A stretch of 64,000 bases of DNA from a bacterium (lineage in GTDB: Bacteria; Patescibacteriota; UBA1384; VFKW01): NCBI GenBank assembly GCA_030647355.1, contig JAUSIS010000013.1:113117-177116 (forward strand). The letters are read 5' to 3'. The translations under genes were made by a program, and so were the position numbers. Below the pieces are notes generated by a model. The model was not told the origin of the DNA. It saw only the letters and a list, made by a program, of their open reading frames with translations, and made no database searches. The first letter of the stretch is position 1. The number at the start of each line of letters is the position of its first letter. Of the stretch, positions 8,624 to 53,551 are shown piece after piece.

Positions 8624-9577
8624 ATGGATCTCAATTCAGCTATTAGGCAATTTCTTGAATATTGCGAGCTCGAAAAAGGACATTCGCCTTTGACAATCAG
8701 GAATTACTCACAATACCTGGAGCGCTTCCATGCATGGGCAAACTTACAGAATATATCAAAACTAGAAGAAATCACTCAGGACACTATAAGGCAATACCGG
8801 CTGTATTTAAATCGAATCCAAGATGAAAACGGCAACAATCTAAAAAAAATCACCATCAATTATCATCTTATAGCCCTGCGCTCGTTTCTGAAATTTATCA
8901 GTAAAAAAGATTTGGCTCAAACTCTGCAAGCAGAAAAAATTGAACTTGCCGATACCGATGAAAGACAAATCAGCTTTCTTAGTCCGGAAGAAGTTGAAAC
9001 ATTGTTAAATCAACCTAATCAAAGCTCAATAATCGGCTTGCGGGATAAAGCAATCCTGGAAACCCTATATTCAACCGGCTTGCGCGTCAGCGAATTAGTC
9101 AATCTTAAACGCGATCAAATCAACATCGAAAAAGGAGAATTTGCAGTCCTTGGTAAGGGCGGCAAGGTTAGAGTTGTCTTCCTTTCCGATCGAGCAAAGA
9201 TTTGTCTTAAGCAATTCCTCGCTAGGCGTAGCGACACTGACGACTATGTCTTTATTCGTTTTGGACGTAAGAAAAACCCGGCATTGCAAATAGGAACTGA
9301 AGAATTAAAACTAACCTCGCGTACAATTCAGAGAATTATCCATCATTATGCAGTAAAAGCGGGCATCATAAAGCCGGTTACACCTCATGTCCTGCGCCAT
9401 AGCTTTGCCACCGACCTACTTTCCAACGGTGCCGACCTTCGTAGCGTCCAAACTCTTCTCGGTCACTCTTCTGTCACCACAACCCAAATCTACACTCACG
9501 TGACAGACCCCCAATTAAAAGAAATTCATAAGCAATTCCACGGCAAAACACTAAAGACACCTCTGGAAAAGAATTAA
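8624..9577 (+). CDS. Tyrosine recombinase XerC/XerD family
   Basis: LRVSEL, HVLRHSFAT and LLGHSSVTTTQIYTHV catalytic-region motifs. RTIQRIIHHYAVKAGI is XerD-like. AAGGAGGA RBS before ATG at 8624. Confidence 0.8.
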   Translation: MDLNSAIRQFLEYCELEKGHSPLTIRNYSQYLERFHAWANLQNISKLEEITQDTIRQYRLYLNRIQDENGNNLKKITINYHLIALRSFLKFISKKDLAQTLQAEKIELADTDERQISFLSPEEVETLLNQPNQSSIIGLRDKAILETLYSTGLRVSELVNLKRDQINIEKGEFAVLGKGGKVRVVFLSDRAKICLKQFLARRSDTDDYVFIRFGRKKNPALQIGTEELKLTSRTIQRIIHHYAVKAGIIKPVTPHVLRHSFATDLLSNGADLRSVQTLLGHSSVTTTQIYTHVTDPQLKEIHKQFHGKTLKTPLEKN

Positions 9578-9627: not shown

Positions 9628-10127
9628 GTAGTTGTAGCTCGAGGGAGTATCGTGAAAATAGCTTGTGCAAAACCTGGTTGGCCGATAGGCGGTAGATACG
9701 GGTAGAACTTCACCCGATCCTTTACATCCGGGTGGCAAAGCATACCCTTGATGATTATAAATCCACGATGGCCTTCTTCGGATGTTTGCAGTGGCTTGTA
9801 GCGCGGTCTGCAACCAATACAGCAGCTATTTACTATTATCACTACGAAACGTCCATCGGCCACACCATGCGCTACGTACGCAATCCCTCGACTGTCATTG
9901 TGCTTCAGGGTATTGGCCAGAGCGTCCCCAATCGGCTCCCGGATATTCTGCCATACTGGATCGTCGTCGTTGTTACCCAGAAAACTGAAGAGCGCTTCAC
10001 AGACTGACAAACGCGCCCGACTAGCGCTCCTCTGGGTCGTGACATCCATGTCCAGATAATCCAGACCGATAGGCTCCCTGTCCAATACCTTAGCTACGAG
10101 TCTCTCAAGCGCTGCGCTTTTTGCCAT
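9624..10127 (-). CDS. Hypothetical protein (GC-rich cassette)
   Basis: 167-aa ORF with visibly higher GC than the flanks. Flanked by the hairpin terminator at 9606-9627. No recognisable motif. Confidence 0.35.
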   Translation of the reverse strand: MAKSAALERLVAKVLDREPIGLDYLDMDVTTQRSASRARLSVCEALFSFLGNNDDDPVWQNIREPIGDALANTLKHNDSRGIAYVAHGVADGRFVVIIVNSCCIGCRPRYKPLQTSEEGHRGFIIIKGMLCHPDVKDRVKFYPYLPPIGQPGFAQAIFTILPRATTT

Positions 10128-15594: not shown

Positions 15595-16506
15595 ATGGGA
15601 AAGATTCTCGCCCTTATGTGTCCCGGACAAGGATCGGCACACATTGGCATGGGTGAGGATCTTTATCAAACCTCGTCCTATGCCCGAACCGTTTACCATT
15701 TCGCCGACGACTATCTAAGGGGTTATCTCCGACAAATCCTGCCTTTTGAGCATTCCGACCTGACCTTGAGTAGTATCTGCTTCGAGGGGCCCCGGGAACT
15801 TCTGGAGCTACCCTCGATTGCGCCGCTGGCTGTTTTTGTCACCAGTATCGCTAACCTCCGTCTTCTTGAGGAGATAGCCGAAGAGGTAGAATGGATAGTC
15901 GCCGGACACAGCCTCGGTGAATATACTGCCTTGGTTGCCTCTAGAGTTCTGACTTACCAACAAGCCCTCTCACTAGTTCTTATCCGAACCAGATTGATGG
16001 TTCATCACGCGAGTCGAATAAACGGCGCAATGGTAGCTACTCTGGGGTTAACTGAAGCACAGGTTGCCGAAATCTGCCAGAAACACCAGCCCACAGGTGT
16101 GATCGTCATGGCAAATTACAACTGTCCGGGACAAATCGTGCTCTCGGGAGATAAGCTTGTACTTGAGAATGCCTGTCAAGACATTCTCCGCCTTGGAGGA
16201 AAGACGCGCGAACTCAATGTCGGCGGTCCCTGGCATTCCCCCCTGATGCAGCCTGCCGCTGATAAGTTCAAACCGCATCTTCGTAGAGCCAAGATCGCCT
16301 CACCCACAGGAACGCTCTACCTAAGCGGTACCGGACGGAAGGTTTCCGCACCTGCAACCATCCGCCATCACCTGCGTATTCAAATGGTATCTCCCGTACT
16401 CTGGGAGAAAACCATTCGCAACATGCTAAGAGATGGAGTAACCGACTTTATCGAGCTCGAACCGAGCAGGATACTAAGGGGATTTCTCAAGCGCATCAAG
16501 TCCTAG
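15595..16506 (+). CDS. fabD: Malonyl-CoA:ACP transacylase family acyltransferase (FabD-like)
   Basis: CPGQGS N-terminal motif, GHSLGEY active-site nucleophile elbow, ANYNCPGQIVLSG, and PWHSPLMQPAADKF as in FabD. GC-rich. Confidence 0.8.
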   Translation: MGKILALMCPGQGSAHIGMGEDLYQTSSYARTVYHFADDYLRGYLRQILPFEHSDLTLSSICFEGPRELLELPSIAPLAVFVTSIANLRLLEEIAEEVEWIVAGHSLGEYTALVASRVLTYQQALSLVLIRTRLMVHHASRINGAMVATLGLTEAQVAEICQKHQPTGVIVMANYNCPGQIVLSGDKLVLENACQDILRLGGKTRELNVGGPWHSPLMQPAADKFKPHLRRAKIASPTGTLYLSGTGRKVSAPATIRHHLRIQMVSPVLWEKTIRNMLRDGVTDFIELEPSRILRGFLKRIKS

Positions 16507-29445: not shown

Positions 29446-30627
29446 ATGGCACTATCTTTAGGCATTGTCGGCTTGCCCAATGTCGGCAAATCAACCTTAT
29501 TCAATGCTTTGGTCAAAAACGCCCAGGCCCAAGCTAGCAACTACCCCTTCTGTACCATAGACCCCAATGTCGGCGTAGTTCAGCTACCCGATGAAAGGTT
29601 GGAAAAATTATCTGAAATCTCTAAATCAAAACAAATCGTCCCTACAACCGTCGAATTCACCGATATCGCCGGATTGGTTCAAGGTGCGCATCATGGCGAA
29701 GGATTGGGCAATCAATTTCTCTCTCATATTCGCCAGACCGATGCCATCGCCATGGTTGTCCGCTTCTTTGAAGATAAAGATATTGTTCATGTCGCCGGTG
29801 CTATTGACCCTGTCGACGACATTCATGTCATTAACCTTGAATTAATCCTAGCCGACCTGGCAGTCGCCGAAAAACGTCTGGAAGCCCTCAAAAAAGAGAC
29901 CAAATCGGGCGATGCCAAAGCTAAAAAACGGGTAGAAATTATGCAAAAGATAAAAGATGGATTGGATAGAGAAATCCCTGTCAGACAAATCTTCCCTGAT
30001 CCAAATGATCTCGAACCTATCAAAGATATTCAATTTATCACCTCCAAACCAGTAATTTACATCGCTAATGTCTCGGAGGGCCAAGCCTCAATTACTTCAG
30101 ATGAACTGATAAAGCATCACGGCCTGCAATCTATTCTACAGCCAACAAACATCCAAAAAGTCATTGCGAGGAGTGAAACGACGAAGCAATCTATTGATTG
30201 CCACGCTTCGCTCGCAATGACAAAAAATAATCTAATCCTTATCAGTGCCAAAATCGAAGCTGAACTCTCCGTTCTGGCAGAAAAGGAACAGCAAGAGTAC
30301 CTAGAATCCCTTGGGCTCCATGAAAGCGGCCTCAACCGCCTCATAGAAGCCGCCTACGAGACGCTCGGTTTGATCACCTTCTTTACCTCAGGTGAGAAGG
30401 AAACACGCGCCTGGACCGTCCTAAAGGGTTCGAGCGCCCCTGTAGCCGCCGGCAAGATACATAAAGACTTCGAGAAGGGCTTTATCGCCGCCGATGTCAT
30501 CAAATATAACGATTTTATTAAATATAACGGTTGGCAAGGCACCAAAGAGAAAGGCCTCATCAAAACAGAGGGCAAGCAGTATGTTGTACAGGACGGTGAT
30601 GTTATTTTATTCAAATTTAATGTTTAA
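29446..30627 (+). CDS. ychF: Ribosome-binding ATPase YchF (Obg-family GTPase)
   Basis: GIVGLPNVGKSTLFNAL G1 motif, DIAGLV G3, C-terminal TGS domain. An internal insertion relative to typical YchF. Confidence 0.85.
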   Translation: MALSLGIVGLPNVGKSTLFNALVKNAQAQASNYPFCTIDPNVGVVQLPDERLEKLSEISKSKQIVPTTVEFTDIAGLVQGAHHGEGLGNQFLSHIRQTDAIAMVVRFFEDKDIVHVAGAIDPVDDIHVINLELILADLAVAEKRLEALKKETKSGDAKAKKRVEIMQKIKDGLDREIPVRQIFPDPNDLEPIKDIQFITSKPVIYIANVSEGQASITSDELIKHHGLQSILQPTNIQKVIARSETTKQSIDCHASLAMTKNNLILISAKIEAELSVLAEKEQQEYLESLGLHESGLNRLIEAAYETLGLITFFTSGEKETRAWTVLKGSSAPVAAGKIHKDFEKGFIAADVIKYNDFIKYNGWQGTKEKGLIKTEGKQYVVQDGDVILFKFNV

Positions 30628-34898: not shown

Positions 34899-35044
34899 TT
34901 TAACAAATCCGAATATCAAATGACCAATTTCCAATCAAATTCTAAATCAAAAAAATTTGATATTAGAACTTTAACATTATTTGACATTGGAAATTTGAAA
35001 TTTGAAATTAATTCTCTGCTTCGGCAGAGAAGAAAGGAGTACCC

Positions 35045-36535: not shown

Positions 36536-36660
36536 AGTTATTCTTCGAGCCAGTCGAGAAGTTTTCAGAGCTTGTCGAGAAGTTATTTAAGTAAGGTATT
36601 CTTCGAGCTTGTCGAGAAGTTTTCAAAACTTGATCGTTCTCGATTGCCCTCGAACAATAA
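36536..36660. repeat. Tandem REP-like repeats (CTTCGAGCNNGTCGAGAAGTTTT units)
   Basis: TTCTTCGAGCCAGTCGAGAAGTTTTCAGAGCTTGTCGAGAAGTT followed by TTCTTCGAGCTTGTCGAGAAGTTTTCAAAACTTGATCGTTCTCGA. Related units at 44651-44700 and 53420-53469. Confidence 0.55.
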
Positions 36661-36722
36661 GAGATTTTTGTATTTTATACTTAGACATTTGACATTGGAA
36701 ATTTGTTATTTGTCATCACTCT

Positions 36723-39700
36723 CTATTCCTCCGCCGGCACTTCCACCACCGACGTGATCGTACCCGTCGGTAGGTAAGACACGATAAACGCCCGGGAAAT
36801 CCCTCCGTAGTAACCAGTAACTTTCATTTTATTCAATGACTGGGTGTAGGCAATAAGGTTAAGGTAAAAAACCGCATTCCGCACATAGTCTAAAGTCCCT
36901 GGATGATATTGTCGTATAAATTGCTGTGTTGCTAAGTTATTGGGAGTTGCATACCAAACAGTCCATGGAGGTGACGGGGGCTTGTAATAGTGGAATTCTT
37001 GTTCCCAATATTTATTAAACGGGCTGGCAAGGTCGTCTATATCTATTGTAATCTCAACTAAATCATCGATTAGCGCATTTCCAAATCCCCTCTTAATTGC
37101 CAGCCCATTGAGCCATTCTTTCCAATAATCACCGTCTCCCCAAGTACTTGAATCATCAGGATCGTATCCCGGCGGTACGCCTTTGGAGAAAGCACTATTC
37201 ATCAAATCTAAATATTCGATCTGGCTGGATAGGCCGGATGCGCCAGCCAACGAACGGGATGAAATAAACAGAAATCCTCCTTTATCATCCACGCTGGCTA
37301 CCGCCATATTGGCCAGATCGCAAACCTGCCGGGCATTCCCGTCATGGTCTGTTCTGGTTTCGACCTTTTCATTATCCTCATTGTAGTAAGGAAGCTTTCT
37401 TAGCTTCCATCCCGGCTTACTTTGACATGGATAAGTTGCCAGTACATCAAATTTTAGTCCTAAATCGGTAATAGCATAAGCATTTAGACCGTAACCCATA
37501 TAACCACCCGTAACATATCCGGGTTCGCCTATCTTTAACACATCCCTCAATCGGGCGCTATTTAAACGAAAAATTGGATACAAACCGTTCCGGTCATAAA
37601 GACTGGCAAAAATCGGATGAGAAAATTCTACTGATGATCCATCTGTATTGCCCGGACTATTAGACCAGACGTCAAAGCCGTATTCGTTTGGAGGTGGGCT
37701 TCCTATCGGGGGTATATCCGCCAAATCTACTTTGGGATTCTGATCGGACCGTTCATAAGCATAACTGTAATCACCGCTATAAAAAAGCAGATTACCGGCG
37801 GTCTGATCGATGCTAATCGACTGGCTGCCGCTTGTAGAAATCGGCCGGTCTAACCCAAGTTTATCGTCAGGATTATTTTTGAAAAGTTCCCAAGTCTGCT
37901 GGGTTCCGTCAGTTTTAGCGTTAAGTTTCCATAAGAAATTCTTATTCGAAAGACTCGCCCCCGAGGAGCTTCCTCCCCACAGGTAAAGAAAATCTTCTCC
38001 TGCTATAGAGGCATAGTTTAAAGATCCGGCAGTTCTCGTCCTTGGCTTCTTGCTTGGATCAGTATCAACTTTCGGATCAGAATCTACTTTGACATATCTC
38101 CAGTCAACTCTCCAGTTATCAGGTAGTCCGGCTAATTGAGAAACTTCACCTACCCACGAAATAAATGATTGATCCGAAGTGTCTGTATTCAAAACAAACA
38201 TCTTATTACTGCCATTAGAAGTAAACAGATCGCCAGACGTCAAACTATAGGAGGGTTGATACCGCAGTAGTATCCTATGATCATTGTCAGCAATACTCTC
38301 AATATTATCAACAGTCGCAATAAACAGCTTGTTATTTCCGCTGATAATCGGCCCTAATGTTATCTGCTTGCCAGCATACAAACCCCTTGCTTGAGAATCG
38401 TCAAGCTGTAAAGTTGCAGGAGCATCGGTAATCAAGTCTTTAGTGATTGATGTGCTTAAAACCTCGCTGTTATAACTGCCTAAATTTACACTAAACATGG
38501 TTAATCCGTTATTTGCCAAAACCTCGCTGGTTCCACCAAGTATTAAATTATTTTCAAACTCAATTTTTTGACATCCTCGAGATCCAGGCGGATTAGTCGA
38601 AAAACAGCTAGCATCATAAAATATTTTTTTAACAGTACCCTTCATTCTCTGATTTTGCGTTCCTTGATCATCAACCGGACCAACAAGGTACTCCATTCCC
38701 AACGCAATCCCCCTTATGGTGCCTTGAGCTACTTTCAATACTTTAACTGTATCGTTCGGCACGGAGTTATTCATCCTCCCTTCGGGCACTAAAACAGCCT
38801 CATTCTGAATACTGCCTCCCAAGTGGTACATATTAAAATTAACGTTGCTGGATACGCCCTTGGGTTTCAGAAAATGCCAGGTCGGGCTCGCAGTAGTTAC
38901 GCCGGTTAATCTCCATGATGGCTTTTGAATTTTCATGTGGCTGTATCCGCCGAATACATACAAAGTATCCTCGGAAAAAACATAATAGCCCTGCGGATTA
39001 GACATATAATTCGGGCCCTCATAGAGCTGCCTGATGGATTTAACGGGTTGACCGGCTATCACCCCGACTTCGCTAACCCTCCCCCAGTAAACCTCATCAT
39101 AACTATCGGTTTGCTCTAAGTTTGGACTGTTTCCATAATAAGTGGCGACATCTCCCGGCGCCAAGCACCTGTTGCCATTACCCAAAGGATTAGCGCTATT
39201 CGTCATCTCGTCGCAACCCGGAGTTACGGTTGTTGCATTCGATAATTGAAGGGTTAATCTCCTTGTATCCGCAACTGACTCTGTATTCCTGCCCGCCAAT
39301 GGCTGGTCAAAGTGCAATTGATATCTGTAGGTTCCAAATCCAACGTCAGTACCGTCTGGAAACCTGGTAATTTTCGAAATCTTCCCCTTTAAATCAACAT
39401 ATTCAGTATCCCCGCCCGAACCATCTTTGGGCCCGTAAACTCGTATAATATCTCCCACCGTTAATCCGTCCGGATATACCTCATCGCCCACAGCGCCATG
39501 AGGAGCATATACGCTCGAGCGCATACTTAAAGTCACTTCATGTATTTCATTAGCTGGCAGCGTCGTTTTGGGCGTGATATTCGGCTCAATCCAATAATCG
39601 GTCGTTGGATTTACGGCCGAAGAACTGTTGATTGATTTATGCGAAAACACTTCTTGGAGGTAATCTCCGTCAGCTAGTACATCTATAACCGGACGGTCTA

Positions 39701-42113
39701 TAACCAGATTCCACTGGGGACTGGCAATAGTCGGATCGATTCTCCAGACATCCGCTGTGCTTCCGATGCTTGTCATGCCTGAATCCCCTACATTTCCAAG
39801 GTTGCCGCCTGCAACTACCAAATTCTTATTGTCTCTGCTGTAACTAACCAGCGCCTCGCTTCTTGGCAACGGACGGTTAATATTTGTGTTAGCAGGCTTA
39901 ATCAGTTTCCATGTTTGAGGTATGCCTCCGCTCAAACTTAGCTCCCAAAGATCATTCTTCTTATTCACGCCCATATTGAATATTATTGCTGTAAGCGGGT
40001 TATCATCCGAATCATCTGCCGGACGTAGATCCCTGTTTAGATATGTTTCATTAGCTGCCATATTGCCGTTTAGCGCGCGATTAGAAATATCTTTGCCGCC
40101 ATACAAGTACGCTATGTTCTCTGACTCGTCATAAACCATTCCGTGTCCTGACCTGGGAGTCGGGCCGAAATTTAAATCCACATGCATAGTCCCCGCTGCC
40201 CCCGGACCATAATCAATGCTGTTTACTCTGCCCCACAATGGCTCCAGATTGATATCGTCTGGCTCTAGCTGAACTATTGAACCGATCGTATAACCGCTTA
40301 TATTAGCAACCGGAACGGGTTGGTTCGCTCCTGGCAAAATCTCTACCGCAGTCCCTCCGCTCCAAATACTTTTTATTTTACTGATGTCATAGTTCCCGTT
40401 TAAATCGTATTTATTATATTCTTTTTGACCGGTAATAGTTTTAGGAAGTACATATACAGAATAGCCGTGACTCTGAAAATATTCATCATACTGAAAATTC
40501 ACAAAATTGACTCCATATCCGAAATTCATCCTATCGCCTTCCAGCGTCCCGCCAAAATCAAACTTATCAGGAATGAATATCAACGGCTTGGTTGTCAATC
40601 CGGTTCCGTCAATTATATGGATAATATCTGCCTTACCGCATACTTCGCGTGCTCCTCCGTTGTGAACTGGTTGAGAGAAATAGAGCGAATCCGGATCCAC
40701 CGTGAAAAAATTTCCGGCCGTATCGATGCTCGTAATAACCCCATCAACTGTAATGTTGAAATTATAAAAATTGCTCTTCCAATATTCCTGTCCGGTCGTA
40801 TACAGCGGATCAGGCCAAGGGTGACTATCCAATTGCAAATAATAATTATACTTAGCCATGACCTTGAGAAATGCCACTCTATCGCCAATTCCGAAAGACG
40901 ATGCTTGTCCGTATTTTAAGTAAACTTTGGTGTCCGGACCCATAAACGCCGTATCCAAAGATTTTGCGATGTTAACATCGTAAGCCAGTTCGCTTGCCGG
41001 AAAAGTCAGAACGGTTGGGGTTGTTTTCTTATAAAGCTGCCGTACATAATAATCCCCGCTAATTTTTTGAGTACTCCCGTTAGCGACAACAGATGCTTTC
41101 TCCCAATTAATTACATTCGAGGGAGTATTATCCGACGGATTGTAGGCATTCTTCATTACCCATAAATCATTACGCTTTCCTCCAGACAAATTCAGCTCGT
41201 CATTGATGATAGCTTTAGTATTGGGATCCATATTCTTTTCAATCGGTCCCCACTTAAATTGATAATTAGTGTCACCAATAAAAGGAGGGTTGATAATACC
41301 TTCGGTCGGATTAGGTAAATCGCTGTTGGCATCTATCATCAGCTTTCCCCCGACGCGATCCACATTCCCTGTTATCCAGTCTTCCAAATTAGTTCTCTCT
41401 TGGCCATCGAGTACCAGACTGTCTTCCGGCAAAGATAAAATCAAAAGATCGTATTTCAAATAGCCCGGATTACTGAACAGACCGGAATATTTCACCCCGC
41501 CAGTATTAGTCACGCCAACATTCCCTTGATCCAGCGGTCCGCCCATTAAAACCTGCCAGTATTCAATCTTGTTTTTCGCATAAACCTTGCCTGTAGAAGG
41601 GTCAATCGGTGCAAGGGGATTCACAAAATCCTTAAATCCGTTATCTTTCAATATAGTACTGCTAGACATTGCCGATCCAATCGTAGTAAAGATATCATTG
41701 GGCTGGACGTAACTTCCTGCAGCTGCATCCCACGCTGAAATTACTGCGACATTGGTGCACCTGGAAATTGTTTTTATTTTTTCTTCCGGAGTAAACGAGT
41801 AATATTTGATATATGGCGCTTTCTTGGAATCTGTTGAAGCTTGGTTTCCAGTGTCAAAGTTTATTAGCATTGTCTGATCAAAAGACGGGTCACCGGCCAA
41901 TTTTTTGCTTAAATCAGAAACTCCTGCCAGCGCCGCTTCCCTCGCCACTCTCGCGTCATTATAAGAAGCCGCATTGCCGATTATGGAGTAACTGTTTATC
42001 GCCGCTCCTAAGGTCGCCGCCGTCATCAAAGTAACAATAAGCAAAGTAAGAACCAATACAGTCCCCTGCTTTTTGAGACCTGTACAATTAAATTTTATTT
42101 TGCCTAAAGCCAT
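36723..42113 (-). CDS. Giant (1796 aa) T4P-associated surface protein: PilX_N-like N-terminal prepilin-type helix plus Kelch/beta-propeller-like repeats (PilY1-like tip adhesin candidate)
   Basis: N-terminus KKQGTVLVLTLLIVTLMTAATLGAAINS resembles the PilX_N hydrophobic helix. Multiple Kelch-like segments (for example SGHGMVYDESENIAYLYGGKD). Last gene of the minus-strand prepilin/pilC cluster. Confidence 0.65.
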   Translation of the reverse strand: MALGKIKFNCTGLKKQGTVLVLTLLIVTLMTAATLGAAINSYSIIGNAASYNDARVAREAALAGVSDLSKKLAGDPSFDQTMLINFDTGNQASTDSKKAPYIKYYSFTPEEKIKTISRCTNVAVISAWDAAAGSYVQPNDIFTTIGSAMSSSTILKDNGFKDFVNPLAPIDPSTGKVYAKNKIEYWQVLMGGPLDQGNVGVTNTGGVKYSGLFSNPGYLKYDLLILSLPEDSLVLDGQERTNLEDWITGNVDRVGGKLMIDANSDLPNPTEGIINPPFIGDTNYQFKWGPIEKNMDPNTKAIINDELNLSGGKRNDLWVMKNAYNPSDNTPSNVINWEKASVVANGSTQKISGDYYVRQLYKKTTPTVLTFPASELAYDVNIAKSLDTAFMGPDTKVYLKYGQASSFGIGDRVAFLKVMAKYNYYLQLDSHPWPDPLYTTGQEYWKSNFYNFNITVDGVITSIDTAGNFFTVDPDSLYFSQPVHNGGAREVCGKADIIHIIDGTGLTTKPLIFIPDKFDFGGTLEGDRMNFGYGVNFVNFQYDEYFQSHGYSVYVLPKTITGQKEYNKYDLNGNYDISKIKSIWSGGTAVEILPGANQPVPVANISGYTIGSIVQLEPDDINLEPLWGRVNSIDYGPGAAGTMHVDLNFGPTPRSGHGMVYDESENIAYLYGGKDISNRALNGNMAANETYLNRDLRPADDSDDNPLTAIIFNMGVNKKNDLWELSLSGGIPQTWKLIKPANTNINRPLPRSEALVSYSRDNKNLVVAGGNLGNVGDSGMTSIGSTADVWRIDPTIASPQWNLVIDRPVIDVLADGDYLQEVFSHKSINSSSAVNPTTDYWIEPNITPKTTLPANEIHEVTLSMRSSVYAPHGAVGDEVYPDGLTVGDIIRVYGPKDGSGGDTEYVDLKGKISKITRFPDGTDVGFGTYRYQLHFDQPLAGRNTESVADTRRLTLQLSNATTVTPGCDEMTNSANPLGNGNRCLAPGDVATYYGNSPNLEQTDSYDEVYWGRVSEVGVIAGQPVKSIRQLYEGPNYMSNPQGYYVFSEDTLYVFGGYSHMKIQKPSWRLTGVTTASPTWHFLKPKGVSSNVNFNMYHLGGSIQNEAVLVPEGRMNNSVPNDTVKVLKVAQGTIRGIALGMEYLVGPVDDQGTQNQRMKGTVKKIFYDASCFSTNPPGSRGCQKIEFENNLILGGTSEVLANNGLTMFSVNLGSYNSEVLSTSITKDLITDAPATLQLDDSQARGLYAGKQITLGPIISGNNKLFIATVDNIESIADNDHRILLRYQPSYSLTSGDLFTSNGSNKMFVLNTDTSDQSFISWVGEVSQLAGLPDNWRVDWRYVKVDSDPKVDTDPSKKPRTRTAGSLNYASIAGEDFLYLWGGSSSGASLSNKNFLWKLNAKTDGTQQTWELFKNNPDDKLGLDRPISTSGSQSISIDQTAGNLLFYSGDYSYAYERSDQNPKVDLADIPPIGSPPPNEYGFDVWSNSPGNTDGSSVEFSHPIFASLYDRNGLYPIFRLNSARLRDVLKIGEPGYVTGGYMGYGLNAYAITDLGLKFDVLATYPCQSKPGWKLRKLPYYNEDNEKVETRTDHDGNARQVCDLANMAVASVDDKGGFLFISSRSLAGASGLSSQIEYLDLMNSAFSKGVPPGYDPDDSSTWGDGDYWKEWLNGLAIKRGFGNALIDDLVEITIDIDDLASPFNKYWEQEFHYYKPPSPPWTVWYATPNNLATQQFIRQYHPGTLDYVRNAVFYLNLIAYTQSLNKMKVTGYYGGISRAFIVSYLPTGTITSVVEVPAEE

Positions 42114-42124
42114 AACCTCTCCTG

Positions 42125-42778
42125 TCAGATTTCTTCAATATTACTGATATTGCTTGCAATAAAACGCAGTTCAATCTTACTTGGACGCGCCAGCACACTC
42201 AAGAGCTTGGAATTACCCGAATTAAAGTTGCCAAGTTTGCTGTATCGTGCTTCTTCCATAGACATCTCTACCTTAATTGCAAACTTATCATTCGGAGGAA
42301 CAGCGTCCGCACCAGTATAGACAGGAATAAAACGTAGCTTCCGTAAAAATACTTTATCCGAACTAATAATCTGCTTATGTAAGACTCCGGGGGCAGTACT
42401 TTTTTCCACCGTCATTTCAATGCTCCTACTGTTAACCGTCGGATTGATTGTCTCGATAATTGTTGTATTGCCGTCAATATCCAATCGGGTTATTTTAATC
42501 GTATCGCAAAAAACTGAAACCCCTTTACAATTCACCACATCTACTGGCTTAACGATCACTACATTGCTAGCGCTCTGCACCTCACGGTTGATGAACTCGC
42601 CGACAAATCTCGTTTCATCTTGCACTTCCCTCATTCCCTCGACTCTATCGCGCATTCTGGCACTCATAATAACCGAACCGGCTGACATCAACATGGCAAT
42701 AGTAAAAATTACTACGGAAACCAGTATCTCAATCAGTGTAAATCCGTTTCTCTCATTCAATTTCACAGCTTTTATCAT
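42125..42778 (-). CDS. Type IV pilus minor pilin (prepilin-type N-terminal cleavage/methylation domain)
   Basis: NGFTLIEILVSVVIF class III signal peptide. Confidence 0.7.
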   Translation of the reverse strand: MIKAVKLNERNGFTLIEILVSVVIFTIAMLMSAGSVIMSARMRDRVEGMREVQDETRFVGEFINREVQSASNVVIVKPVDVVNCKGVSVFCDTIKITRLDIDGNTTIIETINPTVNSRSIEMTVEKSTAPGVLHKQIISSDKVFLRKLRFIPVYTGADAVPPNDKFAIKVEMSMEEARYSKLGNFNSGNSKLLSVLARPSKIELRFIASNISNIEEI

Positions 42779-43242
42779 ATATTCCTCTTAATTACTGCAA
42801 GAGTCTCAATATAATTTTTTTTGGCTAATTCTGCGGCATCACATTTTGACTTGCTCACTGCCTCCGGCCCAAAGCAAACACCAACTTTGATTTTGGCATA
42901 ATCCGAATCGCTGAAAGCATCCTCCACTGTTATAATTCGGTAATATCTTCCGCCGTAGAGATAAACCTTCCCATCACTGGCGTCATCGGTTACAGCTAAA
43001 TCTTCACTTAAAAACTTTGTCCCGTTACCCGGAAAAGAAACCGACCCTTGATAATTCAAAATTTTCAAAACTTCCACCCCTTCTGTCGCTAGATAATACG
43101 CCTGCGTCTGTACTGCCGCCCGGTCAGCCAGACGAAATGAATTAAAATGCAAAGAAAGCGATGCTGATCCTACAGTTACAACCAGTAAAACGCTAATCAG
43201 CACCTCAATTAACCCAAAACCGTATTTATTCAGTCTCCCCAT
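42775..43242 (-). CDS. Type IV pilus minor pilin (PilV-like prepilin)
   Basis: YGFGLIEVLISVLLV prepilin N-terminus. Confidence 0.7.
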   Translation of the reverse strand: MGRLNKYGFGLIEVLISVLLVVTVGSASLSLHFNSFRLADRAAVQTQAYYLATEGVEVLKILNYQGSVSFPGNGTKFLSEDLAVTDDASDGKVYLYGGRYYRIITVEDAFSDSDYAKIKVGVCFGPEAVSKSKCDAAELAKKNYIETLAVIKRNI

Positions 43243-43252
43243 AAAATATCTC

Positions 43253-44617
43253 CTAATACAATAATTCCAAAACCGGAGCCGGTCTCACAGCTACAGACGA
43301 ATCACCGCCAGTCCCTCCACCTTCATCCTCGATACTAACCGATCCCTCTGAATCGTACTTTTCCTTGCTCAAAAACTCGACACTATCCCCTGAAGTTAAA
43401 TAGAAAACTAGCGGTAGATCATAATCAATCGATCCTGTTCCATTCCACCATGCTTTGTGCCTGGCTAAGTTAAACTCGATTGAATAACGGGTATTCTTTT
43501 CCACGTCTACTAACTCCCCTACTTCACTGCGATTTGCCCCTGCCTCCGCATAGATATGGCAGTCGCTAAACGTAGGACTAGACTCGCTGCAATTCCCCTC
43601 CAAGTCTGAATCCGGCTTAAGCATATAAATATCTACCAAACTGCCTGCTGTAACAATATCGCCTGTAGTCAGCCATAATCTGGCCCGTTTTGGAAATTTG
43701 TTCGGCTCGCTCGGGTCAGTTAAGCTGGCCCAATCGAACATGACAAATGATTGGTTGCCGTCATTAACTCTCAATATATTTCCAATCCAATCCCCTCCCC
43801 CTGCATCCCAATACGAGTCTTGCATAATCAACGATTCAGCGCTTGAATTATCGGGGAAAACCGCCATATCTGTTGACTCGCTGGCTTCTCTCGATATCCA
43901 AACCTGCCCGCTGTATTTGTTAATATTGACATACATAAATTCCGTATCCGAACTCGTTGTATTTTTTATCTTTTCATATCTGATATTTTTCAATTTCACT
44001 CTAAAGGTGTTTTCCTGTTTCGTTGAGTCCCATAATTCCGCGTTCTGCGAATCAACACTCTTCGTACCCCCGCAGGTAATGTCAAAATTTGCTAAAGTAA
44101 ACCGGACACCGGTTCTGGTTATTTTTTTCGATGTGTCGCCGTCAACCGGAATCAATTCCTCAGTGCCTGCTTTAATTGATTCTAAGAGCTTTTCCGGCGA
44201 AAATCCGTCAATCATAATACCGTCCGAAAAATCGATTGATTTGATTAATGTGGACGATAATTGATTGCTTCGATTATCACATGCCGTTACAATTCCCTGA
44301 ATTTCCACCGGTGAATTCGTCACAACTGCGTTTGAACCTGATGTCGTCTTAACTTGCTCATTCTTTTTTGTTATCCCGTTAATAAACTTGATCTCGAAAG
44401 CGGTAAAATTACTCCGACCGACATTCCCCCCCCGTGGAGCAATGGCATCGGTCCGCGCCTCGATCACTGCCTGCCTTATCGTCTCCGCCGCAGTCGTCAG
44501 ACTGCTTCGTTCTTGAATTCCGTTAACTTGAGGCATAGCTAAAGCCGTCAAAATTACAATGACGCCAATTACTACAATTAACTCAATTAAAGTGTATCCT
44601 TTTTTTAATGATTTAAT
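43253..44617 (-). CDS. Large type IV pilin-like protein (~455 aa); start codon uncertain (no in-frame ATG upstream of the prepilin motif)
   Basis: KKGYTLIELIVVIGVIVILTALAMPQ prepilin motif. The only plausible initiation is a non-ATG codon (ATT at 44615-44617) 5 nt after an AAAGGAGA RBS. The in-frame stretch upstream back to 44713 is probably not translated. Confidence 0.55.
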   Translation of the reverse strand: MKSLKKGYTLIELIVVIGVIVILTALAMPQVNGIQERSSLTTAAETIRQAVIEARTDAIAPRGGNVGRSNFTAFEIKFINGITKKNEQVKTTSGSNAVVTNSPVEIQGIVTACDNRSNQLSSTLIKSIDFSDGIMIDGFSPEKLLESIKAGTEELIPVDGDTSKKITRTGVRFTLANFDITCGGTKSVDSQNAELWDSTKQENTFRVKLKNIRYEKIKNTTSSDTEFMYVNINKYSGQVWISREASESTDMAVFPDNSSAESLIMQDSYWDAGGGDWIGNILRVNDGNQSFVMFDWASLTDPSEPNKFPKRARLWLTTGDIVTAGSLVDIYMLKPDSDLEGNCSESSPTFSDCHIYAEAGANRSEVGELVDVEKNTRYSIEFNLARHKAWWNGTGSIDYDLPLVFYLTSGDSVEFLSKEKYDSEGSVSIEDEGGGTGGDSSVAVRPAPVLELLY

Positions 44618-44785
44618 CCCATCTCCTTTTATATTTAAATGTATGTGATATCCTTCGAGCCCCACCGGCCAGCAGAGTCGAGAAGCTCGGTTCTCCACAA
44701 GCCAGAACAGCATCCTTCCCTGTCATTGCGAGCGCATTTCTGTCATTGCGAGCGTAGCGTGGCAATCTTTCTCTTTCCCAACTTC

Positions 44786-44840
44786 CTTCTTACTTCTTAC
44801 TGCTTACCAGCTTATCGCTTATTACTTACTGCTTAACTAG
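44786..44840 (-). repeat. Heptanucleotide tandem repeat (GTAAGNA)n in 5' leader of large pilin gene
   Basis: Plus strand reads CTTACTTCTTACTGCTTACCAGCTTATCGCTTATTACTTACTGCTTAA, about 7 units of NGCTTAC. Related repeat at 53227-53268. Confidence 0.5.
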
Positions 44841-44843
44841 CCC

Positions 44844-45461
44844 CTATTCCATAAGGCAAGGTGTGCAAATTTTGGTAATATCAAACTCGAAAATCCAATC
44901 TGGAGGCACTTCAGGATATACGCTAACCGTTCCATCTGTTCGAATACTCTTATCGGTCCCCTTTTCATATCTGTTAGAATCACTGCCGGCTCCTGTTGTA
45001 TCCGTCGTTAAATCATTATCATTCGAGTTCTCTAGTTGAGCCGAAATCTCAAAATTCAAACCATCTTCCGACGGTCGGTATCTGTATGCATATCCTGTCT
45101 TTGAATCCTGCACATAGGTATCGGCATAACCGTCCTTGATCATCCCATTAACATTACCGCCATCACCCTTCATAAGTTTCTCGTAGCCGCCTTGCTCGCC
45201 GTCATAATAGCAAGGGAAATTAACTTTCAAAGCAGGTAATGTTTTCTCGCAAGGCAGAGGGTAAGTCTTTTTATCGGCATAATATAAAGTCAAATACCCC
45301 TGTATTTTCGCCAAATCACTTTTCCTTTTAGCATCTCTGGATCTCAACCTCACTGCGCTCGTGCCAACCAGCGAAATTACCATTAAAATTGAAATGATGG
45401 AAATAACTACCAACAATTCTATCAGAGTAAAAGCTGAAATCCTTTCCCTTTTAATTTTCAT
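44844..45461 (-). CDS. Type IV pilin (major pilin candidate)
   Basis: ISAFTLIELLVVISIISIL prepilin leader and N-terminal helix. 205 aa. Confidence 0.75.
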   Translation of the reverse strand: MKIKRERISAFTLIELLVVISIISILMVISLVGTSAVRLRSRDAKRKSDLAKIQGYLTLYYADKKTYPLPCEKTLPALKVNFPCYYDGEQGGYEKLMKGDGGNVNGMIKDGYADTYVQDSKTGYAYRYRPSEDGLNFEISAQLENSNDNDLTTDTTGAGSDSNRYEKGTDKSIRTDGTVSVYPEVPPDWIFEFDITKICTPCLME

Positions 45462-45470
45462 AATGCCTCC

Positions 45471-46664
45471 TTAAAAAGCATTAACCAAGCTATATATCGG
45501 ACCTAAAATACTAATGACCACAAATCCAACACCGCCGCCCAGTACAATAAAGATAAACGGTTCCAAAAGTGATGTAAATGTCTTTAATTTATTATCCACT
45601 TCTTCCTCATAATACTCGGCAAGAGTATCGCACATTCCCGAAAGATCACCAGTCTGCTGACCGACATAGAGCAACTGGCTCATAAGCGGTGGGAAATATT
45701 TACTTTTCTTCAGTACCGAGCTTATCGGCAAACCCTGCTCCAGCGATTTAGATATACTCAATACCAGATCTATGTAAATCGTATTTGTCGTAATAGTCGC
45801 CAATATATTCACCGACTCGATAATCGGCACTCCAGCCAGAAGCAGCAAGGAAAAAGTCCGATTAAAACGAGCATAAAAAACTTCCCTAACAAGAGTCCCA
45901 AACACCGGAAAATTTATGCTTATAACACTTTTAGTCTTTTTGCCAGTGTTACTAATCATAAATACTTTATATCCGGCCACCAAAAATATTATACCCATAA
46001 TAATCAAATACCAATACTGAGTCATAAACCTGCTCAACGCAATCAAAATTTGAGTTTGTATAGGCAAAGCCAGATTTTGCTCCTCAAAAATCTGACTAAT
46101 AGAAGGAATGACCTTAGTCATCACAATAAAAATGACAGCTATCATCACACACACGATTACAATCGGATAAACCATAGCCCCACGGATTTTAGCAGTAAAA
46201 GAAGCCGAAGTCGCCACTTCAGCCGATAACTCGTTAAGAACAATTTCCATCTTACCCGTCGCCTCCCCGGCGCGCAGAACCCCGGTTTCTATACTGGGAA
46301 AAACTTGCGGATAATTTTCCATCATCCGTGATAATGGAAAACCATTCTGTAATCCAAGACTCATCTCCTCTAATACTCTTCCCAGCGATTTATTGGGTGT
46401 TTGCCTGGCAATCTCGATCGCTTGTGTAATAGAAACACCGGCTTTAAGCATTGTCGTTAACTGCCGATACAGCAAACTGCGATCTCTCGCCTTCACAGAA
46501 AAAGACAGAAATATGTCCTGCCATTTGGTTTTCTCAGTAATTGAGATTACTTTGAGTCCCCGTTTTTCCACATCTTTATGCACTTGTTCCATATCAGAAG
46601 AGGCAACCTTGCCGTTGACAATTTGCCCTTTGTCATCACTCGCCTTAAAAGTAAAGATTTTCAT
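45471..46664 (-). CDS. pilC: Type IV pilus assembly platform protein PilC (GspF family)
   Basis: Two GspF-type repeats each with three TM segments, including the QLLYVGQQTGDL...L motif region. Confidence 0.85.
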   Translation of the reverse strand: MKIFTFKASDDKGQIVNGKVASSDMEQVHKDVEKRGLKVISITEKTKWQDIFLSFSVKARDRSLLYRQLTTMLKAGVSITQAIEIARQTPNKSLGRVLEEMSLGLQNGFPLSRMMENYPQVFPSIETGVLRAGEATGKMEIVLNELSAEVATSASFTAKIRGAMVYPIVIVCVMIAVIFIVMTKVIPSISQIFEEQNLALPIQTQILIALSRFMTQYWYLIIMGIIFLVAGYKVFMISNTGKKTKSVISINFPVFGTLVREVFYARFNRTFSLLLLAGVPIIESVNILATITTNTIYIDLVLSISKSLEQGLPISSVLKKSKYFPPLMSQLLYVGQQTGDLSGMCDTLAEYYEEEVDNKLKTFTSLLEPFIFIVLGGGVGFVVISILGPIYSLVNAF

Positions 46665-51104: not shown

Positions 51105-52781
<1,677 letters not shown>

Positions 52782-52927: not shown

Positions 52928-53227
52928 CTATTCTATAACCCCTAAAATATCTTCTTCTTTTACAATCTTGTATTCTTTGCCTTCAAATTTAATCGAATCC
53001 CCGCCATACTTACTAAACAAAACGACATCCCCCTGCTTTACTCCTAAGGAAACCAGTTTTCCGTCAATCCATTTGCCTGTCCCTATCGCTACTACCTTCC
53101 CTTCCTGTCTTTCTTCTTTGGCCGACTCCGGCAGAATTATCCCGCCCTTTGTCTTCTCTACTTTCTCAAGCGGGAAAACGAGCACGCGATCGCCCAGCGG
53201 TCTTAGCTTTGCCATATCACTCCTCAC
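52928..53227 (-). CDS. groES: Co-chaperonin GroES
   Basis: MAKLRPLGDRVLV...GKVVAIG...Y typical GroES, 99 aa. Confidence 0.9.
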   Translation of the reverse strand: MRSDMAKLRPLGDRVLVFPLEKVEKTKGGIILPESAKEERQEGKVVAIGTGKWIDGKLVSLGVKQGDVVLFSKYGGDSIKFEGKEYKIVKEEDILGVIE

Positions 53228-53268
53228 TTACTTCTTATTGCTTACTGCTTACTAGCTTATTGCTTAAT
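53227..53268 (-). repeat. Heptanucleotide tandem repeat (GTAAGNA)n immediately upstream of groES RBS
   Basis: Plus strand reads CTTACTTCTTATTGCTTACTGCTTACTAGCTTATTGCTTAA. In mRNA sense the repeats run directly into GAGGAG-N6-ATG. Confidence 0.5.
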
Positions 53269-53344: not shown

Positions 53345-53375
53345 AGCCCATTATTGGGACCGCTGAAAAACCTAA

Positions 53376-53470
53376 TTATTCTCCGAGCGATCCGCCATCC
53401 GCCAACTGGCGGAGGCGGAGAGTCGAGAAGTTTTATCCTGCTAGTTCTCGACAAGCTCGAACAATAAAGC
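53376..53470. repeat. REP-like hairpin pair upstream of groES (CCGCCATCCGCCAACTGGCGGAGGCGG; GTCGAGAAG-N15-TTCTCGAC ... CTCGAACAATAAAG)
   Basis: Inverted copies of the GTCGAGAAG unit form a hairpin. The tail CTCGAACAATAA is shared with 36650-36660. Confidence 0.5.
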
Positions 53471-53551
53471 AAAATATGCCTTTTCAAAGAAGTTTTTCAG
53501 CGGTCTCTTATTTACAGCGGGCCCTGCATCCTATCTAGTAGAAAGAATATT

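Follow-up and report, generated by a model that had tools for sequence, protein, structure and literature searches.

Host attachment in Patescibacteria has been ascribed to type IV pili. We analysed a 64,000-nt stretch (hereafter the window) of contig JAUSIS010000013.1 (positions 113,117 to 177,116 of the forward strand; assembly GCA_030647355.1), from a bacterium of the Patescibacteriota (UBA1384; VFKW01), which contains a large pilin gene on its minus strand whose canonical start codon is likely to have been lost. The closest described cases of such a start come from Escherichia coli. The AUU start codon of infC is conserved and takes part in feedback through initiation factor 3 (IF3). Both infC and pcnB use AUU in this species, in which near-cognate codons initiate translation at ~1-2% of the AUG level (0.02-3% across constructs) (10.1101/063800). 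More generally, the AUG starts of prokaryotes are under purifying selection (PMC5622118). A second precedent concerns the repeats upstream of the gene: hmw1A and hmw2A of Haemophilus influenzae, which encode surface adhesion functions, carry tandem copies of ATCTTTC between two promoters, with 13-24 copies studied (PMC8262952).

As in infC and pcnB, a near-cognate AUU would be read here at the proper distance from a Shine-Dalgarno sequence, and an output of a few percent of that from AUG would be expected. Unlike the conserved AUU of infC with its IF3 feedback, the ATT of the large pilin gene appears derived, the four orthologs with a clear start having ATG, and its use is putative. We favour, with moderate confidence, the reading that the start codon was replaced and that the Shine-Dalgarno-directed AUU is the remaining initiation site, with low output. 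The features that bear on the start are the following, in window coordinates.

43253..44617, minus strand: large pilin open reading frame (ORF), 454 aa, with an N-terminal helix and a clade-specific beta-rich body
44582..44599, minus strand: prepilin cleavage/methylation motif, G(-1) Y T L I E(+5), above the cutoffs of Pfam and TIGR02532
44615..44617, minus strand: candidate initiation codon ATT, 5 nt after AAGGAG and at -7 from the cleavage site
44623..44628, minus strand: Shine-Dalgarno sequence AAGGAG, with a free energy (dG) of -8.9 kcal/mol (median for the window, -8.0)
44605..44622, minus strand: ATG in the +1 frame (44622-44620) and its five-codon ORF MGLNH, closed by the stop codon TAA 44607-44605
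44663..44665, minus strand: in-frame GTG without a Shine-Dalgarno sequence (dG -1.5, no usable gap)
44696..44698, minus strand: second in-frame GTG (dG -5.7, 13-nt gap)
44711..44713, minus strand: in-frame ATG, the start of the 486-aa product in the public annotation, probably not the real start

The minus-strand ORF that ends at 43253 encodes ...IKSLKKG and then YTLIELIVVIGVIV, with cleavage after the G. The prepilin motif KKGYTLIEL, named in the initial annotation, is present and passes both curated cutoffs, with 22.8 bits against Pfam N_methyl (cutoff 21.2) and 23.4 bits against TIGR02532 (cutoff 16.3). Beyond the N-terminus, no Pfam family was found, and solved pilin structures match the N-terminal part only. 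An exhaustive HMMER search of 1.84 billion representative proteins returned six relatives, a profile search for orthologs returned 3 proteins, and a scan of JGI metagenomes for the family returned no orthologs. An AlphaFold model, built from a 3-sequence alignment and of low confidence (mean predicted local distance difference test score 50.3), would place a helix at 10-59 followed by strands. No second copy of the 5' end of the pilin gene was found within the window.

Candidate starts were scored against a generic anti-Shine-Dalgarno sequence, that of this organism being assumed because there is no 16S rRNA in the window. The ATT is the sole candidate with a strong, correctly spaced Shine-Dalgarno sequence (gap 4-5 nt), and it falls within the normal range of 56 ORFs of the window (modal gap 3-6 nt), whereas the canonical alternatives are weaker or mis-spaced. 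This genome relies heavily on Shine-Dalgarno sequences; a strong motif followed by ATG and a long ORF was found in 38 cases, and of the window's 41 AAGGAG hexamers, 13 stand before real starts. The initial annotation had correctly located both the ATT (44617-44615) past AAGGAG (44628-44623) and the ATG in the +1 frame, but its statement that no ATG, GTG or TTG lies in frame upstream of the motif is false, as no stop codon interrupts this frame before TGA 44725-44723 is reached, and ATG 44713, GTG 44698 and GTG 44665 all lie in it.

Further ways of starting the protein were considered and rejected. General use of ATT starts in this genome was set aside because the other matches to a Shine-Dalgarno sequence plus ATT appear to lie within longer ORFs, as judged by ORF-table coordinates and not one by one. 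A programmed ribosomal frameshift from the +1-frame ATG would fail because that frame (ATG GGA TTA AAT CAT TAA) stops before the A AAA AAG heptamer, and slippage on the A7 run could not rescue this ATG, since the run lies beyond the same stop. The A7 homopolymer itself, in the leader codons TTA AAA AAA GGA (44600-44606, minus strand), is a possible frameshift-prone site inside the gene.

The synteny from groESL to the pilus cluster is kept in relatives, and orthologs of the large pilin could thus be recovered together with their DNA. Their starts, leaders and distances to the preceding pilin gene compare with those of the window as follows.

Window: ATT, leader (I)KSLKKG, 226-nt spacer
L001: ATG, leader MIWRDKIAKG, 22-nt spacer
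L003: ATG, leader MLKKTFSKG, 34-nt spacer
L128: ATG, leader MKKYSKIG, 5-nt spacer
L007: ATG, leader MFLKRKRG, on a contig that extends only 160 nt upstream of the sequence shared with L005
L005: ACG, leader (T)KNFRRG, ~350-nt repeat-laden spacer

The ATT is therefore not conserved among orthologs, four of which use ATG while the L005 copy has ACG. Because leaders in the four orthologs that start with ATG are 8-10 residues long, a canonical ATG with such a leader is likely to be the ancestral state. The 226-nt spacer of the window is, in the same comparison, lineage-specific.

The sequence features, the energetics of the ribosome-binding sites, the starts of the orthologs and the homologies of the repeats are observed directly; from them we infer AUU initiation, a low expression level and a minor-pilin role for this gene. 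The ancestral ATG would have been lost and replaced, leaving the ATT, downstream of a strong AAGGAG, as the only credible site of initiation. The resulting leader of 7 residues, (M)KSLKKG, would be cut by prepilin peptidase before YTLIEL. By analogy with E. coli, output from the AUU would be a few percent of that from AUG, and the subunit would be either made at a low level, which would suit a minor, tip-complex pilin, or nearly silent. The spacer consists of inserted, lineage-specific material; the upstream frame is open as stop-free dispersed repeats make up this spacer, and the annotated ATG 44713 would arise as gene callers accept ATG, GTG and TTG only. As AUG starts are generally under purifying selection (PMC5622118), a derived ATT would either be offset by the strong Shine-Dalgarno sequence or do mild harm. 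N-terminal proteomics of the mature pilin, which the initial annotation had proposed as a check, would be uninformative on the start because prepilin peptidase removes the leader.

Several points weigh against AUU initiation. AUU use in this organism is putative, and the stringency of IF3 in Patescibacteria may matter. The four ATG orthologs, among which the ATT is not conserved, could point to a recent null mutation rather than to a tuned start. A weak Shine-Dalgarno-like sequence, GGGAAGG, adjoins ATG 44713; the codon-usage test of the stretch between this ATG and the ATT (see below) is based on 32 codons; and the anti-Shine-Dalgarno sequence was assumed. Finally, the Logan assembly of SRR13727527 reproduces the sequence from the Shine-Dalgarno motif through the +1-frame ATG to the ATT base for base, making a consensus assembly error unlikely, but its contig may share reads with the metagenome-assembled genome (MAG), and it ends at 44770, beside a heptamer tract.

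The alternative that survives best is that of an inactive or OFF allele, in which a recent ATG-to-ATT change, possibly tied to the invasion of the spacer by repeats, removed the start, and the pilin is effectively unmade. We consider it unlikely, though a serious competitor. It would agree with the ATG of the four clear-start orthologs and with purifying selection on AUG starts (PMC5622118). The copy in a related MAG that lies behind a repeat-laden spacer also has no ATG (ACG at -7 after AAGGAG), while a second contig of that MAG has one. However, the ORF is intact across its 454 codons, and its unique changes at conserved columns are not in excess over those of its orthologs (odd-one-out counts of 21 for the window pilin versus 22, 16 and 14), so the large pilin shows no sign of long-standing decay. 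In addition, a strong, correctly spaced Shine-Dalgarno sequence has been retained, and initiation at AUU is measurable in E. coli (10.1101/063800).

The second alternative is that the public annotation is right. NCBI calls a 486-aa product, a 'prepilin-type N-terminal cleavage/methylation domain-containing protein', from ATG 44713; with this start, or with GTG 44665, the pilin would have a type IVb-like leader of 39 residues, beginning MLFWLV, or of 23. These codons are canonical and in frame, the weak GGGAAGG ahead of ATG 44713 reaches a dG of -6.5 kcal/mol, and L005 has a GTG that follows GAGAGG, 18 codons ahead of its cleavage site, and could act likewise. The gap between GGGAAGG and ATG 44713 is nevertheless 0 nt, GTG 44665 has no Shine-Dalgarno sequence at all, and the other pilins in the window have leaders of 8-12 residues, a range that also covers the orthologs. 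The extension of 32 codons (44618-44713) has a codon log-odds of 0.018, against a minimum of 0.037 among 32-codon windows of the pilin body, which places it in the bottom 4% of 767 coding windows; it is also homologous to non-coding repeats elsewhere. Being built of repeats, with non-coding codon usage, a poor or absent ribosome-binding site and a 39-residue leader compared with 8-10 residues in orthologs, the extension is unlikely to be coding, and we regard the annotated start as improbable.

The two copies in the related MAG deserve closer description. L005 is contig VFKW01000044 of 'Candidatus Berkelbacteria bacterium Bin_65_7' and carries groESL, pilC and pilA, followed by the repeat-filled spacer and then by AAGGAG TGGGTT ACG AAG AAT TTT AGG CGG GGT TAC ACT, where the contig ends. 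It thus encodes a pilin N-terminus without ATG. L007, contig 76 of the same MAG, contains the whole pilin gene behind a different upstream sequence, with its ATG after TTGACATT arrays. From the cleavage-site codon on, L005 (21117-21193) and L007 (161-237) share exactly 77 nt. As 77 is a typical assembler k-mer length, this overlap is the signature of an assembly-graph fork at the cleavage-site codon. The VFKW01 population would then have either two 5'-end haplotypes or two paralogs with identical N-terminal coding sequence. An invertible segment was rejected for this relative, the alternative upstream sequence not being the reverse complement of anything in L005. Two related populations present a near-cognate codon at -7 after AAGGAG behind repeat-invaded spacers (AUU in the window, ACG in VFKW01), which may hint at a recurrent loss of AUG, with exchange of the 5' cassette or repeat insertion toggling the tip pilin between a normal and a throttled or off state; we find this scenario quite doubtful.

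The spacer between the large pilin gene and the preceding pilin gene (44618-44843, 226 nt) is a mosaic in which a heptamer tract, REP-like sequence and a third repeat are combined. Among known elements, the STRR heptamers of cyanobacteria and elements of the REP/MITE type also form short repeat families dispersed over spacers. At least four dispersed repeat families were found in the window; they resemble these elements in their dispersal through spacers and differ from them in sequence, in the sense orientation, at the loci found, of the tract family within 5' leaders or after stop codons, and in one REP-like copy that lies in frame in ychF. The elements of the spacer, and the tracts related to its heptamers, are listed here.

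44787..44836, minus strand: degenerate heptamer tract xTAAGxx, 7 units, with an 8th unit, GGAAGTT, reaching 44780
44720..44770, minus strand: REP-like repeat in 1.5 copies, AAAGATTGCCACGCTACGCTCGCAATGACAG then AAATGCGCTCGCAATGACAG, with a 15-nt direct repeat that is 100% identical
44648..44685, minus strand: CTTCTCGACT...GCTCGAAGGATAT, a third dispersed repeat, within the N-terminal extension of the annotated product
53225..53267, minus strand: sister heptamer tract in the groES 5' leader, running to the groES Shine-Dalgarno sequence
9502-9545, 9852-9889, 15751-15794 and 19707-19736 of L005, sense orientation: heptamer tracts

The initial annotation had described the tract as seven (GTAAGNA) units and had suggested a slipped-strand phase-variation switch. 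A period-7 tract does exist, 169 nt upstream of the ATT and right after the stop codon of the preceding gene, but it is degenerate and includes one 8-nt unit. Its units are, in order (44836-44780), TTAAGCA, GTAAGTA, ATAAGCG, ATAAGCTG (8 nt), GTAAGCA, GTAAGAA, GTAAGAA and GGAAGTT, so that identical adjacent units number two at most. Tandem Repeats Finder reports it at 44789-44835, with period 7, 6.6 copies, 75% matches, 4% indels and a score of 43. Three in-phase RTAAG units, with one mismatch allowed, match six times in the window against 0.04 expected. The pilin tract and the groES-leader tract (53266-53226) are 88% identical over 41 nt, and both contain the irregular 8-nt unit ATAAGCT(G/A), which identifies them as copies of one another and not as independent products of slippage.

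The same family recurs in relatives. The four tracts of L005 occupy 21 kb and are all in sense orientation; one precedes groES, one separates groES from groEL, one precedes trmB and one follows pilC. A looser heptamer tract lies upstream of pilC in L001 (~1128-1180). All six of the sense-oriented tracts in the window and L005 are in spacers, adjoining groES, groEL, trmB or pilA or following the stop codon of a pilin gene or pilC. They begin just past a stop codon or occupy a 5' leader, and the TAA in every unit closes all three frames. The groES tract has 6 units both in the window and in L005, whose GroEL proteins are 84% identical; this equal count in two species argues for the stability of the tract. 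L003 has a reduced form of this tract, and L006 and L128 lack it. In metagenomes, a scan for four xTAAGxx units in phase recovered at least 120 stretches, an abundance obtained without a control heptamer pattern and hence without a baseline. Among the matches listed, contigs ranged from 29% to 69% GC and included long perfect arrays, and tracts between co-directional genes were sense in 31 cases and antisense in 15. A link between heptamer tracts and the REP-like 8-mer in metagenomes was rejected, since only 3 of the 123 listed tracts lay close to such an 8-mer, and a single case looked real. The pilin tract is one member of a repeat family present in several gene spacers of the clade and not a credible on/off switch for the pilin.

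These observations bear directly on a switch in which the copy number of the heptamer would turn pilin expression on and off or grade it, as in hmw1A of H. influenzae. The resemblance lies in 7-nt units upstream of a surface-adhesion gene: here the leader of a pilus gene has a tract of period 7, and (ATCTTTC)n upstream of hmwA is the precedent (PMC8262952). Long perfect xTAAGxx arrays do occur in other metagenomic contigs, and the Logan contig terminates beside the tract. The latter assembly, however, looks fragmentary, as no copy of the exact GroEL, pilA or pilC proteins was found among the recorded Logan contigs. The locus differs from hmw1A and hmw2A in having 7-8 degenerate units, in the lack of any promoter-like site in 44400-45000, and in its paralogous tracts by groES and other genes, housekeeping genes among them. 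The long identical tandem run that is a hallmark of simple-sequence-repeat phase variation is lacking, and the tract lies neither inside an ORF nor within or between promoter elements. With the phase-breaking 8-nt unit and the constant groES count added, we judge this switch very improbable. The initial suggestion of an unusual start with regulated expression therefore stands as regards the start, reduced non-AUG translation being plausible, and falls as regards slipped-strand phase variation.

The remaining parts of the spacer also have relatives elsewhere. The REP-like element is GATTGCCACGCTACGCTCGCAATGACAG, with a 93.5% match to 30196-30226 within ychF. There, a palindromic REP-like element, GTCATTGCGAG...AAGCAATC TATT GATTGCCACGCTTCGCTCGCAATGAC (30160-30226, plus strand), is in frame within the YchF ORF (29446-30627), where its translation, ...VIARSETTKQSIDCHASLAMTKNN..., separates the G domain from the C-terminal one; the pilin spacer has 1.5 copies of the same arm. 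The third frame of that spacer has an ORF of 50 codons (44613-44765, minus strand), which is REP-derived (MPRYARNDRNALAMTG...) and ends with TAA 44615-44613, which overlaps the ATT by one base and would, if the ORF were translated, allow termination-reinitiation coupling. The third repeat can be aligned to the L005 spacer between pilA and the pilin gene, which is non-coding (109 columns, with a mean column identity of 71%), and it has further relatives upstream of groES and in L001. No minus-strand terminator-like sites were found in 44400-45000. A riboswitch or small RNA in the spacer was rejected, as there was no Rfam match at the gathering threshold across the whole window or at E <= 5 in 44500-44950, and the spacer RNA folds more weakly than its shuffled counterparts do (z = +2.3).

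The indel that the initial annotation offered as an alternative, one base missing between 44620 and 44608 with the true start at ATG 44622 and a leader MGIKSLKKG, is weak and in our view highly improbable: this ATG is indeed only one base out of frame, and a 1-nt insertion would give a 9-residue leader, but the sequence is identical in two assemblies, the ATG directly abuts AAGGAG, an unfavourable spacing, the nearest run is only GGG, and the A7 run, past the +1-frame stop, cannot restore the frame.

The large pilin gene is co-located with pilus assembly genes, namely pilC and three other pilin-like genes, in one co-directional cluster that is completed by a gene for a very large protein. In transcriptional order, the other members are as follows.

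45471..46664, minus strand: pilC-like platform gene (T2SSF), first gene of the operon, Pfam T2SSF E = 7e-51
44844..45461, minus strand: major-pilin-like gene, 205 aa, N_methyl 26.2 bits, with GspG and ComGC N-terminal matches
42775..43242, minus strand: minor pilin, PilV/GspI-like, 155 aa, TIGR02523 E = 8e-6, below cutoff
42125..42778, minus strand: minor pilin, GspJ/ComGF-like, 217 aa, N_methyl 30.8 bits, with weak GspJ and ComGF matches
36723..42113, minus strand: 1796-aa protein, putative tip adhesin, with a hydrophobic N-terminus and faint Kelch/beta-propeller matches (precomputed)

The order is thus pilC, 205-aa pilin, 454-aa pilin, 155-aa pilin, 217-aa pilin and 1796-aa gene. The TAG stop of the 205-aa gene is 7 nt ahead of the heptamer tract, and a promoter-like pair, TTGACG / TATGAT, was spotted by eye 5' of pilC. 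The cluster is conserved in L001, L003 and L128, as is the operon position of the 1796-aa gene in relatives. No prepilin peptidase gene was identified among the scanned ORFs of the window. The GroEL (51105-52769) is closest to metagenomic proteins, and its nearest named matches, at ~70% identity, are from Candidatus Berkelbacteria and Patescibacteria. The locus is an ordinary type IV pilus operon of Berkelbacteria-like Patescibacteria, with a weak or damaged start codon.

Pseudopilin operons have the gene order G-H-I-J-K, and typical GspH/FimU proteins are ~170 aa long. Because the operon order here mirrors G-H-I-J-K, the 454-aa protein would be a minor, tip-complex pilin in the GspH/FimU position. 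It shares with GspH/FimU minor pilins a class III signal with E5 and the place of its gene, second after the major pilin and ahead of the genes for I-like and J-like pilins and for a large tip protein. It differs in its length, far above the typical one, and in a body without a family match.

Additional repeats and a candidate regulatory element were observed near groES and at the end of the cluster. A groES promoter-like sequence, TTGACAAAATGTAAAGCAGACTTTACAAT (window 53345-53317, minus strand), is conserved in L003 (9329-9357), L006 (3182-3210) and L128 (9543-9571), and the palindrome TGTAAAG-N4-CTTTACA in its spacer is a candidate operator, unlike the classical CIRCE element. MITE-like elements with the inverted repeat CCGCTGAAAAAC / GTTTTTCAGCGG are found upstream of groES (~53360-53520, minus strand) and in the pilA-pilin spacer of L005 (20926-21071). 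Downstream of the 1796-aa gene there are three copies of the repeat TTCGAG(C)NNGTCGAGAAG; TTTGACATTGGAAATTTG arrays are present in the window and also precede the ATG-bearing pilin copy in L007 (30-80); the coordinates of these two repeats, given jointly, are 36545-36625, 36687-36712 and 34979-35004 in the window and 30-80 in L007.

If the AUU is used, the first 32 residues of the deposited 486-aa protein are spurious, an error typical of gene callers when a non-canonical start is preceded by repeats without stop codons. The xTAAGxx tracts, in sense orientation within 5' leaders and intergenic spacers, appear to be an undescribed feature of these genomes. A recurrent loss of AUG, if true, would represent variation in pilus composition by recombination and not by repeat slippage. 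For the organism itself, a clade-specific large pilin that is throttled or lost could alter the pilus tip.

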